DNA from: a virus
Lineage: Duplodnaviria > Heunggongvirae > Uroviricota > Caudoviricetes
Virus record (IMG/VR): IMGVR_UViG_2563366802_000013
Location: 1 to 44,878 of that record
DNA: 44,878 nt
Reading direction: 5' to 3' (one strand)
Shown: piece by piece, positions 3,143 to 5,725 of the stretch
Layout of the letters: the number at the start of each line of letters is the position of its first letter
Position numbering within the stretch: the stretch's first letter is position 1
Position numbers and translations under genes: made by a program
The notes under the pieces: generated by a model
The model's database searches: none
What the model saw: the letters and a program-made list of their open reading frames with translations, nothing else
Told to the model about the DNA's origin: nothing

Positions 3143-5725
3143 TTAATAAGCTACACCATCAAGACAAATATTACCGGTTGAGAAACCATAAATTTTAATT
3201 GTCCCGTTAGTGTCAATAACAATATTACCCTGTCCAATAGGGAGGCCACTTGCATCAAGTTTTGTAACAGAAAATGCCATTTTCCTAACTGGCGAGATGC
3301 TCAACGGAAGGTTGCATACTGTCGTACCGTCTGCGGTTATACCTGTTCCGATGTTAGAGATAGTGCCAGTTAATGCAATTTTACCATCTGGATATGATGT
3401 TACAGCAGCATGAACCAGTTGAGTTACTGACCAGTTATTTGCCCCCCACGTACCTGGCATCCAGTGGTTAATTATAGGATCATTACGTCTACCGAACATA
3501 TGTGATGCAATAGCTCTGGCATTTGACAAGCCGAGAAGAATTCTTCCGTATGTGGTCGGGTGAATGTTGTCCATAACAACAGGGTCCTGATTTGTCAGGA
3601 GATATTCGGCTACGATTGGTCCGAGATCGTCAAGAGAACCAGTATTCAGGGCATTAAGCGGCTGATTAACCTCTTTATTACAAACAGCTACTGTGTTGGC
3701 AAGTATCGCCCTGTAAAGCGCCCCACGCTCGTAATTTGCCGAAGGCTGTCCATAACCAGCAACCCCGGTTAACGTAACACTCTGATCTCTGGTATAGAAC
3801 TGTGTAGGCAAAGATACAATGCATGGAATCCCAAGGTTATTTGCAGTCAGCATCATCTGCTTAACGTTATCTCGTAATGCCTCTCGTCCGGATTGCCTTT
3901 GAATATCATTCACTCCGATTTGGAAAAGCACTACATCGATATCATCCAACGATGTGACATTAAATATATTAGCGATATCTCCTGATGCATACCCACTTAT
4001 TGCAATTGTCTGCATACGTCCAACGCGAATGCCGTGAGTTCCTTCTAGTGCTTGTTGCGCGAACTGTACCCATCCATTTCCCATAGAGGCATCAGTGATT
4101 GAATCGCCTACAACAGCGATATTTATCGGTTTTGCAGAGCGGTATTGTCGATTTTCGATAATGTATGGATAGAAGATAGACATATACTCACCGCCATCGC
4201 CAAGTGATCCAAATCCTACACGACCAATGATTCTCCCGGTTTGACGAATTGTAACTCGCTCTATCCCGTTAACCAGGATAGTGAATGACTTAAGCGTATC
4301 AACACGAACGGATGCAATACTGTTTTTTAGCCATTGTGAAGCATGACTATCAGATCCAGCATATGCAATGCTTTTTGTAGAGTATGCTCCGCCAATTGTT
4401 CCCTCAATTAAATTACCATGTCCAAAATGATCCTCGTAATATATCCACCGCATATTTTCAGCTTCAACTACAACGCATGGCACACCACCGGTGTTGTCAC
4501 CCTCATACATCGACACGAAATATTCAGAGCACGGCTTCACCCTGCTGTATGCAGCAAAAACAAGATTCCCCGTTGGAGCTGGTATGGACACAGCGTCCCC
4601 AGTAAGTGATGCTGCAGGTGTATCAGCGACAGCACCCATTGGCCAGACTCCTGACAGAAAAGACCACCCAGAAGTAAAGGTAGTCAAGACTGGCGTTTCT
4701 TTGTCAGGTATATCGCAAAATAACGTTTTATTGTCTGTGTAGTTTGCGTTTTTTATGAGCGGAGGCGTTGGCGGAGTTCCGGGGACAAGCGGTGTATATT
4801 CACCATTTGTAATACCAACACTTGGACGTAATAAATAGCTAGTACTATTTCCTGTGAAAAAGAACTTAACAGGCCTGACTAGTTTAACCAGTGGTGATTT
4901 TACGGCCTCATCACTTGCAGTAGCTATTGTGATGTTATCGCCAACATCAAGGGTAAAGCCATTCCAGTAACCTGCTGGTATTTCTGGTGTGAACGCCATG
5001 CTAACAATAGTACTACAATTAATTCTAATTACTTTATCCCTGGTTGAGACAAATGCTTTTAAGCTATCAAGAGCAGCGCGGTAGCCATGACCTGGCACAC
5101 CTCCAAAAGTAGCTATTGAAGCTGTTGATATCAATTCAAAACGAGAACCGTCCTGTGAGACAAAATAACCACCACCATCTGTATCTCCTGGCGTGCCGGT
5201 TCCGTTCCTGACGTATATGCCATCACCACCATCATCTACGGAAAACCTACCACCAGTAATAACGCACCCGATAACTGGATCAATAGTAGAGTTAATGGCG
5301 TCAATAAATGAAGTGTATTTTTTAGCCGTTTCATTAATGGCACTACGCAAGCTGGCATCGCCAACACCTATCCATTTGCCTTTACCTATTCCCCCTGCAC
5401 TATCAGGCGTAGAGTCAGGGGGAACTACTTTGGGGAAGGGGCCGTCCCATCTGTAATATTCCCCGTTGCTCTTCCAGCGCAGGCACTCGTTAGCAGTGCT
5501 AAGGGTGCTGCCATCTTCAAAAGAATCCTTCGTGATATAGCCATAATTCAGAATTGCCTGATTCGCATCGTAAGTTATGCCAGCAATTGTACGATGATTA
5601 TCGCCAAATCTGTCAACATAAACATGGTCTTTAGAGGTCACGAACTCGTCAATTTTCCCCGCGTTAAATTTCAGATCGCGTGGGGATTCGCTCGGTACTG
5701 ACAGGTTGGTAGGTGTCGTAGCCAT
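3143..5725 (-). CDS. Tailspike/tail fibre protein with C-proximal SGNH/GDSL esterase domain
   Basis: 860 aa; SGNH blocks visible: VVGDSITD (block I), GVNDI (block III), DNIHP (block V); N-terminal region resembles phage tail-attachment domains; last gene of the tail module. Confidence 0.85.
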   Translation of the reverse strand: MATTPTNLSVPSESPRDLKFNAGKIDEFVTSKDHVYVDRFGDNHRTIAGITYDANQAILNYGYITKDSFEDGSTLSTANECLRWKSNGEYYRWDGPFPKVVPPDSTPDSAGGIGKGKWIGVGDASLRSAINETAKKYTSFIDAINSTIDPVIGCVITGGRFSVDDGGDGIYVRNGTGTPGDTDGGGYFVSQDGSRFELISTASIATFGGVPGHGYRAALDSLKAFVSTRDKVIRINCSTIVSMAFTPEIPAGYWNGFTLDVGDNITIATASDEAVKSPLVKLVRPVKFFFTGNSTSYLLRPSVGITNGEYTPLVPGTPPTPPLIKNANYTDNKTLFCDIPDKETPVLTTFTSGWSFLSGVWPMGAVADTPAASLTGDAVSIPAPTGNLVFAAYSRVKPCSEYFVSMYEGDNTGGVPCVVVEAENMRWIYYEDHFGHGNLIEGTIGGAYSTKSIAYAGSDSHASQWLKNSIASVRVDTLKSFTILVNGIERVTIRQTGRIIGRVGFGSLGDGGEYMSIFYPYIIENRQYRSAKPINIAVVGDSITDASMGNGWVQFAQQALEGTHGIRVGRMQTIAISGYASGDIANIFNVTSLDDIDVVLFQIGVNDIQRQSGREALRDNVKQMMLTANNLGIPCIVSLPTQFYTRDQSVTLTGVAGYGQPSANYERGALYRAILANTVAVCNKEVNQPLNALNTGSLDDLGPIVAEYLLTNQDPVVMDNIHPTTYGRILLGLSNARAIASHMFGRRNDPIINHWMPGTWGANNWSVTQLVHAAVTSYPDGKIALTGTISNIGTGITADGTTVCNLPLSISPVRKMAFSVTKLDASGLPIGQGNIVIDTNGTIKIYGFSTGNICLDGVAY

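Follow-up and report, generated by a model that had tools for sequence, protein, structure and literature searches.

A convergent tailspike and acyltransferase pair at the end of a lambdoid prophage

The viral sequence analysed here (IMG/VR record IMGVR_UViG_2563366802_000013; 44,878 nucleotides, referred to throughout as the window) is a lambdoid siphovirus prophage of ~45 kb, and this analysis concerns two convergent genes near its integrase end, encoding a tailspike and a putative O-acyltransferase. A preliminary description of the sequence had placed a tailspike with SGNH blocks at positions 3143-5725, adjoining a prophage acetyltransferase. The open reading frame matched these coordinates exactly, the motifs were present and the neighbouring gene was identified as an AT3-family O-acyltransferase. 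The genes and features of this end of the element are the following:

1..1158, plus strand: tyrosine integrase (Pfam Phage_integrase and Arm-DNA-bind_3), at the prophage end beside the cassette
1790..2018, plus strand: AT-rich stretch upstream of the acyltransferase gene (GC 0.39), with a weak promoter-like site at 1965-1993
2019..3107, plus strand: AT3-only O-acyltransferase of 362 amino acids, predicted serotype-conversion gene (PF01757, E 4e-22; phrog_3333 'O-acetyltransferase', E 9e-62)
3117..3136, no strand assigned: bidirectional hairpin terminator (CGGGGCT-loop-AGCCCCG, flanked on each strand by a T-run) within the 35 bp that separate the two convergent genes
3143..5725, minus strand: tailspike gene, an open reading frame of 860 amino acids (coordinates including the stop codon; Pfam Tail_spike_N and Lipase_GDSL_2; full-length match to phrog_13362)
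5742..5763, minus strand: conserved hairpin and T-run separating the spike start from the tail-tip gene, kept in 14 sister prophages
5786..8260, minus strand: conserved TipJ-type tail-tip protein (phrog_469, E 5e-256), to whose gene the spike module is joined

The acyltransferase gene thus sits between the tailspike and the integrase, convergent with the spike and separated from it by a terminator. GC content at third codon positions was low in the spike body (0.34) and the acyltransferase gene (0.38) relative to the spike N-terminus (0.47) and the tail-tip gene (0.70), indicating that the cassette is compositionally foreign to the phage. A mosaic relative of the window (locus L001) is located at argW in Escherichia coli L73, with its integrase gene adjoining a tRNA-Arg gene. 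A 96% identical copy of the spike is named 'GDSL-type esterase/lipase family protein' in RefSeq.

Domain architecture and predicted activity of the tailspike

The translation of the spike gene contains the blocks VVGDSITD, QIGVNDIQ and MDNIHPT. Pfam searches identified the TSP1/gp66 tail-spike N-terminal domain (PF18668) at residues 65-123 (E 1e-18) and Lipase_GDSL_2 (PF13472) at residues 538-679 (E 3.9e-9, exceeding the gathering score). The whole protein mapped to a PHROGs family of 'unknown function' (phrog_13362), while its N-terminus matched many tail-spike families; NCBIfam returned no model for either the spike or the acyltransferase. Sequence similarity to proteins of solved structure was confined to residues 1-133, which matched 9occ gp13 (E 1e-46) and the N-termini of the CBA120 and G7C spikes.

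Two alignments were used to examine the remainder of the protein, one of close spike homologues and one of 39 distant sequences, 19-30% identical to the window protein. An AlphaFold model of residues 135-860, built on the distant alignment, reached a mean predicted local distance difference test score (pLDDT) of 78 and, together with the sequence matches, delimited five regions:

Residues 1-134 (5324..5725, minus strand): exchangeable N-terminal virion-anchor module of the TSP1/gp66 type (match to PDB 9occ_G)
Residues 200-299 (4826..5128, minus strand): small alpha/beta domain, similar to the cap at the N-terminus of beta-helix tailspikes (pLDDT ~80)
Residues 344-529 (4136..4693, minus strand): beta-sandwich, all-beta in the model, probably carbohydrate-binding
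Residues 533-749 (3476..4129, minus strand): SGNH esterase domain, with predicted catalytic S542 (codon 4100-4102), G578, N606, D719 and H722 (codon 3560-3562)
Residues 754-860 (3146..3466, minus strand): C-terminal beta-sandwich (all-beta, pLDDT ~90)

A low-confidence, proline-rich linker occupies residues 302-342. The family profile aligned residues 200-299 to residues 23-120 of the Sf6 tailspike, at the start of the Sf6 body (E 1e-11 to 2e-14), and the SGNH domain was modelled as a three-layer alpha/beta/alpha fold.

The preliminary description had made the esterase assignment depend on the catalytic serine and histidine surviving a proper alignment, and both S542 and H722 proved invariant in all 39 distant sequences. 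In block I, G540-D541-S542 was invariant in both alignments, so that the nucleophilic serine is present; in blocks II and III, G578, G604 and N606 were invariant and D607 almost so, providing the putative oxyanion hole; and in block V, D719 accompanied H722 in every distant sequence. The remaining invariant columns of the distant alignment were G565, Y644, R672 and G841. The invariance of the catalytic Ser, Gly, Asn, Asp and His at 19-30% identity argues that the predicted catalytic function has been kept. A spike acting as a glycanase, with a purely structural SGNH-like region, had been put forward as the alternative, but neither a beta-helix nor any glycosidase or glycanase domain was seen in the protein by Pfam, in the AlphaFold model or in fold searches.

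Foldseek searches of the Protein Data Bank returned as best matches of the spike body the carbohydrate esterases PbeAcXE (7toh), CE2 (2waa) and YxiM (2o14), with E-values of 1e-10 to 2.5e-11. These enzymes likewise present a beta-sandwich followed by an SGNH domain, but they are soluble monomers of plant-polysaccharide degradation, share 9-15% identity with the spike and lack both the virion anchor and the C-terminal sandwich. In the viral structure library, the top full-body match was a protein from an uncultured phage (E 4e-48, TM-score 0.62), with numerous phage tail proteins that carry an SGNH esterase annotation next in rank. An exhaustive HMMER search recovered 284 clusters at E ≤ 1e-3 and 204 at E ≤ 1e-10 (clustering at 50% identity); these were mostly proteins of 650-900 amino acids that aligned along residues 335-860. 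The spike body is therefore a member of a sizeable, uncharacterised family of putative esterase-type receptor-binding proteins. Among 50,697 deposited phage genomes, tblastn with the spike body returned nothing beyond 26-30% identical hypothetical proteins and megablast with the cassette gave no match; a profile-based word-index search did not reach the distant relatives.

The acyltransferase resembles Sf6 Oac

The PF01757 domain spans residues 8-342 of the 362-residue acyltransferase, and no other domain was found, including any fused SGNH domain, which makes this an AT3-only protein. The functional motifs of AT3 proteins, R/K-x10-H in the first transmembrane helix and RxxR in the first cytoplasmic loop, have been defined for Sf6 Oac and OafA (PMC9558356). 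In the window protein, R14-x10-H25 in the first helix, F47-F48-x-x-S51-G52 and R79-R80-x-x-R83 all align with Sf6 Oac, at an overall identity of 21-28% (E 9e-6). A tblastn search of the deposited phage genomes detected no relatives of this protein at E ≤ 1e-10. Upstream of the gene, the candidate promoter at 1965-1993 (TTGCCA-17-TAAACT) presents 9 of 12 consensus matches, but the scan yielded no sites above those obtained in shuffled sequence; this site hence remains only a candidate.

The spike body and the acyltransferase are inherited together

Close homologues of the spike body (71-100% identical) formed only ~10 clusters, from E. coli, Morganella morganii and Proteus mirabilis, and the nearest homologues of the acyltransferase came from the same three taxa. 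The convergent pair was identified in siphovirus prophages of E. coli at two attachment sites, in siphoviruses of Morganella and Proteus, in a P22-like podovirus of Morganella whose spike carries a head-binding N-terminus, and in Buttiauxella, where the spike is frameshifted. It was also identified in prophage remnants keeping little besides the spike, the acyltransferase and the integrase. Identities to the window proteins in these loci were as follows:

L001: acyltransferase 100%, spike body 96%
L004 and L005 (Morganella): acyltransferase 91%, spike body 86-87%
L010 to L013: acyltransferase 81%, spike body 80%
L006, L008 and L009 (Proteus): acyltransferase 74%, spike body 71%
L002 and L021 (Buttiauxella), the exception: acyltransferase 55%, spike body 85-92%

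Across four genera and two tail types (siphovirus and P22-like), the spike body and the acyltransferase have been inherited together, and their divergence is roughly parallel. Such a low-GC, two-gene cassette would recombine as one unit onto different phage tails.

The spike body is also found away from the acyltransferase. Its homologues exchange the anchor for a P22 head-binding domain, a T7 tail-fibre N-terminus or other N-termini, and through these exchangeable modules the body occurs on at least five virion platforms. Three of its carriers encode the same body with no acyltransferase nearby. Two are a T7-like lytic phage (L015) and a further siphovirus (L016/L017); the third, an epsilon15-like prophage of E. 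coli YZLc4-1, has no annotated acyltransferase at any position.

Some prophage remnants (L011:6001-13310 and L013 in E. coli, and L025:1625-6302 in E. coli YZ22MPE6), which have lost nearly all other genes, combine an intact esterase-type spike with one or more acyl-transfer genes, accompanied in L011 by an integrase, and are bordered directly by chromosomal genes or IS1. In these remnants the conversion gene is probably what is selected, although the intact spike reading frame is worth noting.

A generic modification slot follows the spike in sister prophages

To place the pair in context, the spike and its neighbour were classified in 26 TipJ-anchored sister loci from other Enterobacterales and in four E. 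coli sister prophages. Nearly every sister prophage presented an O-antigen-modification module directly after the spike, distributed as follows:

Esterase-type spikes (6 distinct bodies): acyl transfer 4; Gtr 1 (L040); both 0; none, other or unknown 1 (L032, abutting a host gene)
Non-esterase spikes: acyl transfer 7; Gtr 5; both 1; none, other or unknown 6

The four acyl-transfer neighbours of esterase-type spikes consist of an AT3 protein, an AT3 protein with a small secreted SGNH protein, an MBOAT protein with a partner, and a further AT3 protein. Those of the non-esterase spikes include two fused AT3-SGNH proteins (L034 and L043) and one operon of an AT3 protein with a separate GDSL protein. 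A specific coupling of esterase spikes to acyltransferases was considered and rejected, as no enrichment was detected in these 26 + 4 loci (acyl:Gtr 4:1 against 7:5, one-sided Fisher p ~0.4). The position after the spike is a generic serotype-conversion slot, holding gtr genes or an acyltransferase whatever the spike type. Since a spike and an O-antigen-modifying gene almost always adjoin in this prophage family, sequence can be of help in predicting serotype conversion and host range.

The same non-esterase spike body (phmmer E = 0, along all 647 residues) lies beside gtrABC in L027:4150-6093 (E. coli 30EVA1) and beside an AT3 gene in L038:12539-14482 (Pantoea wallisii), which indicates that a spike and a conversion module can be re-paired.

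Some of the acyl-transfer systems in the slot are split. In L047:14051-16239 (Enterobacter sp. TMH.L2), an AT3 gene whose product is 39% identical to that of the window overlaps by 4 bp the gene for a separate 371-residue GDSL protein; in L024:255-3773 (E. coli XJ55), an AT3 gene is accompanied by one for a 227-residue, secreted-looking SGNH protein, with an IS5 element in between; and in L025:1625-3970 (E. coli YZ22MPE6), an MBOAT gene is followed by one for a 359-residue partner with no Pfam match. Whether AT3-only enzymes need an SGNH partner is an open question (PMC9558356), on which these split systems can bear. The SGNH domain of the window spike was itself considered as the source of, or a stand-in for, such a periplasmic partner. 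The idea was rejected, since the spike body showed no significant BLASTP similarity to the L047 or L024 partners and, moreover, a virion protein is cytoplasmic and made late in infection, and cannot serve the periplasmic transferase of a lysogen.

Association of the spike body with a host O-antigen cluster

The L73 genome carries the 'S88 variant O45' O-antigen cluster, which comprises dTDP-6-deoxyhexose genes and a gene for a hexapeptide-repeat acetyltransferase of the EpsC/WcaB type. The type-specific part of this cluster was detected in 37 of 5426 complete E. coli genomes, and all seven complete E. coli genomes encoding the spike body (7/7) fall among those 37, with the spike in three prophage contexts (argW, near yciB and near yfgI). 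The chance of such an overlap is ~4e-16 for seven independent draws, or ~3e-7 if the three prophage contexts are taken as the independent acquisitions. On the basis of this genomic association, rather than of adsorption, the spike is very probably specific for the S88-variant O45 O-antigen. As a receptor-binding protein, it is a candidate for recognising the O-antigen of strain S88 (the O45:K1:H7 clone of neonatal meningitis), with possible use in typing or phage engineering. Judging from the cluster gene, this O-antigen is probably O-acetylated by the host itself, and an acetylated substrate for the spike hence probably exists without the prophage.

The seven genomes encoding the spike body have small chromosomes (4.62-4.88 Mb), while most of the other 30 genomes with this O-antigen cluster, S88 included, measure 5.0-5.2 Mb. 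The larger genomes probably belong to the K1-capsulated lineage of sequence type 95, and a capsule might conceal the O-antigen from the spike.

Comparison with known systems

The closest functional parallel for the spike is gp63.1 of phage G7C (PDB 4QNL), which deacetylates the O-antigen without cutting it and requires both host O-acetylation and its own activity for infection (PMC10743462). The preliminary description had likened the window protein to the esterase-type spikes of some enterobacterial phages, and domain searches and structure prediction agree, yielding an SGNH domain and a fold like those of gp63.1. Both proteins combine a virion anchor with an SGNH receptor-binding part and have no glycanase domain. 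The window spike body shows no sequence homology to gp63.1, however, and is hence predicted to work like it without being of its family.

The gene layout corresponds to that of Sf6, in which a tailspike gene, a 33-bp gap with an annotated terminator, a convergent AT3-only oac gene and int follow in the same order and orientation (the window gap being 35 bp), and the AT3 motifs are common to both acyltransferases. Sf6 differs in being a P22-like podovirus whose spike is a beta-helix endorhamnosidase rather than an esterase, and in the modest identity of its Oac noted above. By modifying the lysogen O-antigen, Sf6 Oac and PhiV10 Oac render the spike of their own phage ineffective, and Sf6 acetylation gives superinfection exclusion (PMC9558356); the glucosylating module of Hf4s likewise alters the lysogen O-antigen against the phage's own spike.

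Epsilon15 is also a temperate, serotype-converting phage with an SGNH-bearing spike, and the active SGNH 'petal' esterase of its tailspike gp20 removes O-antigen acetyl groups (bioRxiv 10.64898/2026.07.31.742079). In that protein, however, the esterase is accessory to a beta-helix endorhamnosidase, and epsilon15 conversion suppresses host O-acetylation (PMC9558356), with a sign opposite to that of the putative acetyl-adding gene of the window. SGNH receptor-binding proteins are common in Klebsiella prophages, where they predict the surface-polysaccharide type and two have been shown to be esterases, and 5-30% of prophages also encode acetyltransferases (PLoS Biol 2026, PMC13123978). The Klebsiella proteins differ in targeting capsule, no fixed spike-acyltransferase pair has been described for them, and they show no sequence kinship to the window body family.

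SGNH esterase tailspikes and Oac-type AT3 conversion genes are therefore each already known. The modest novelty lies in a conserved mobile pair of a spike predicted to remove esters and a conversion gene predicted to add them, and in the predicted O45-S88 specificity.

Interpretation of the tailspike-acyltransferase pair

The explanation that best accommodates these results, to which we assign a probability of roughly 0.55, is that the receptor module of this temperate siphovirus consists of two linked genes, a G7C-like deacetylating spike and an Oac-type conversion gene that makes the lysogen a poor receptor. The receptor-binding part of the spike (beta-sandwich, SGNH esterase and C-terminal beta-sandwich) would recognise the O45-S88 O-antigen and strip from it the O-acetyl groups placed by the host's own O-antigen cluster, without cutting the backbone; as for G7C gp63.1, the acetyl group would be needed for adsorption. 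The acyltransferase, expressed in the lysogen, would act on the periplasmic side and attach an additional acyl group to the O-antigen. So modified, the O-antigen would serve poorly as a ligand or substrate of this spike and of other O-antigen-specific phages, thereby providing superinfection exclusion and keeping released progeny off cell debris. The domain content, catalytic residues, fold, gene linkage and host O-type association are observations; from them we infer the substrate of the spike, the positions of the acetyl groups and that the acyl group would block, rather than feed, the spike.

Several points weigh against this explanation. If the spike were a broad acetylesterase, it would not obviously be stopped by an additional acetyl group. 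The linkage of the two genes is not strict, as L002 and L021 carry an acyltransferase just 55% identical to that of the window beside an 85-92% identical spike body. In L007 (P. mirabilis GCA_029626545.4), the acyltransferase is truncated (8622-9419, residues 97-362 left, no gene called) next to an otherwise identical spike, showing that a lysogen can lose the conversion gene yet keep the spike. With regard to specificity, the seven E. coli hosts are maybe partly clonal, so that independent events number ~3 rather than 7. The searchable literature yielded nothing usable on the structure or acetylation of the O45-S88 O-antigen, and a survey of tailspikes and O-serogroups (PMC10408124) covers only the reference O45 of Shiga toxin-producing E. 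coli. Finally, close copies of the body (71-87% identical) occur in Morganella, Proteus and Buttiauxella, leaving a receptor shared across genera unexplained.

The preliminary description had instead proposed an opposing receptor-modification pair, in which the acyltransferase acetylates the O-antigen against other phages and the spike of the same cassette hydrolyses exactly that ester, allowing cassette phages to adsorb still. The two enzymes are indeed predicted to act on the same bond in opposite directions, the joint inheritance and roughly parallel divergence across four genera and two tail types fit such a pair, and four of the six esterase-type bodies in this prophage family adjoin an O-acyl-transfer system. 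We nonetheless regard the proposal as unlikely, since the spike body is used by phages without an acyltransferase, the host cluster, through its acetyltransferase, probably supplies the esterase with a substrate independently of the prophage, and the slot is generic, with no acyltransferase enrichment beside esterase spikes and with one of these (L040) paired with gtr. A nearly unchanged spike moreover occurs with an exchanged acyltransferase, 55% identical to that of the window, and none of the seven genomes carries two copies of the spike body, a weak observation at this sample size. An extended version, in which the cassette is a self-contained lock and key whose acetyl mark excludes competitors while matching esterase spikes enter, and which spreads as a pair across phage types and genera, appears slightly less likely again. 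What stands of the original proposal is a tailspike with a complete SGNH catalytic set and an AT3 gene beside it; the co-inheritance of the two genes in four genera and on two types of virion goes beyond that proposal. The view that the spike serves to take off its neighbour's acetyl groups was not supported as stated, given the arguments above and a layout identical to that of Sf6.

It is also doubtful, and more so than the preceding possibilities, that the pairing is a positional coincidence, with the acyltransferase a generic moron acting on a target unrelated to the spike receptor or on host fitness (e.g. immune evasion) and the linkage reflecting adjacency alone. The generic nature of the slot fits this view, as do the 62% identical relatives of the window acyltransferase that sit behind a Mu-type tail fibre, the occurrence of the same non-esterase body with gtr (L027) and with an AT3 gene (L038), and the co-transfer in Morganella and Proteus of genes past the acyltransferase (DNA polymerase III theta and int). 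Yet every characterised case of this layout (Sf6 Oac, P22 and Hf4s Gtr, PhiV10 Oac) targets the O-antigen receptor of the phage itself, the E. coli loci share the pair but differ in the genes beyond the acyltransferase, and two acyltransferase variants each lie beside this spike body in two genera. Least probable of all is that the SGNH domain only binds sugar, or that the true receptor is the capsule or another glycan: esterase activity is predicted rather than measured, the SGNH 'petal' of epsilon15 can be accessory to a glycanase (bioRxiv 10.64898/2026.07.31.742079) and the body is common to several genera, but the invariant catalytic columns, the lack of a glycanase-like domain in the spike and an association that is 7/7 with the O-antigen cluster all speak for a working esterase and an O-antigen receptor.

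Under the favoured explanation, of a deacetylating spike and a blocking conversion gene, the pairing follows the ordinary temperate-phage design of a spike with a surface-modifying gene, in an unusual combination of enzymes, and would not surprise specialists. It does pose, in E. coli, the question of whether adding acetyl groups protects against a phage whose spike removes them; if it does, the outcome depends on the regiospecificity of each enzyme.

Patchy divergence and neighbouring genes

The window and the L73 prophage are identical over nt 1-3200, encompassing int, the acyltransferase gene and the terminator. Their spikes differ at 102 synonymous and 26 non-synonymous codons, in two patches located within the two beta-sandwich domains. 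The differences are densest in the C-terminal beta-sandwich (76 mismatches in nt 3201-3600), and the other patch falls in the beta-sandwich of residues 344-529. This restriction to the beta-sandwich patches suggests that recombination reaches into the spike, largely sparing the catalytic core. Along the locus, the sharp patches span 3201-3600 and 4001-4800 in the spike and 6001-7600 in the tail-tip gene; mostly synonymous, they resemble tracts of gene conversion between alleles that have left the SGNH core almost intact.

The hairpin at 5742-5763 presents compensatory stem changes (CCCGGC/GCCGGG versus GCCAGC/GCTGGC) among the 14 sister prophages, which come from several genera. Lying between the tail-tip stop at 5786 and the spike start at 5725, the hairpin and its T-run are followed by ATGGAAxxAAT-ATG. 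The element could act as an insulator, mark a recombination boundary at which spikes are exchanged, or be a terminator that Q-modified polymerase passes.

Between the integrase and the acyltransferase, positions 1159-1789 (minus strand) encode a 129-residue UmuD-like S24 peptidase, without a UmuC partner, and a 79-residue open reading frame (phrog_3893). The equivalent place in the sister prophage L002 holds an S24 peptidase and a full Y-family polymerase. Further along the element, a disruption of the tape-measure gene was considered, given its length of 835 residues in the window against 1161 in L73, and rejected, as the window carries a different tail-shaft module, with nt 10127-16031 non-homologous to L73. 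Among the distal tail genes, a 155-residue open reading frame at 8641-9108 (minus strand), between the NlpC/P60 and DUF1833-like genes, encodes an HNH endonuclease, as annotated by RefSeq for the L73 copy. Its position is empty in L002, L024, L026 and L027, and it is probably an insertion of a free-standing homing endonuclease.

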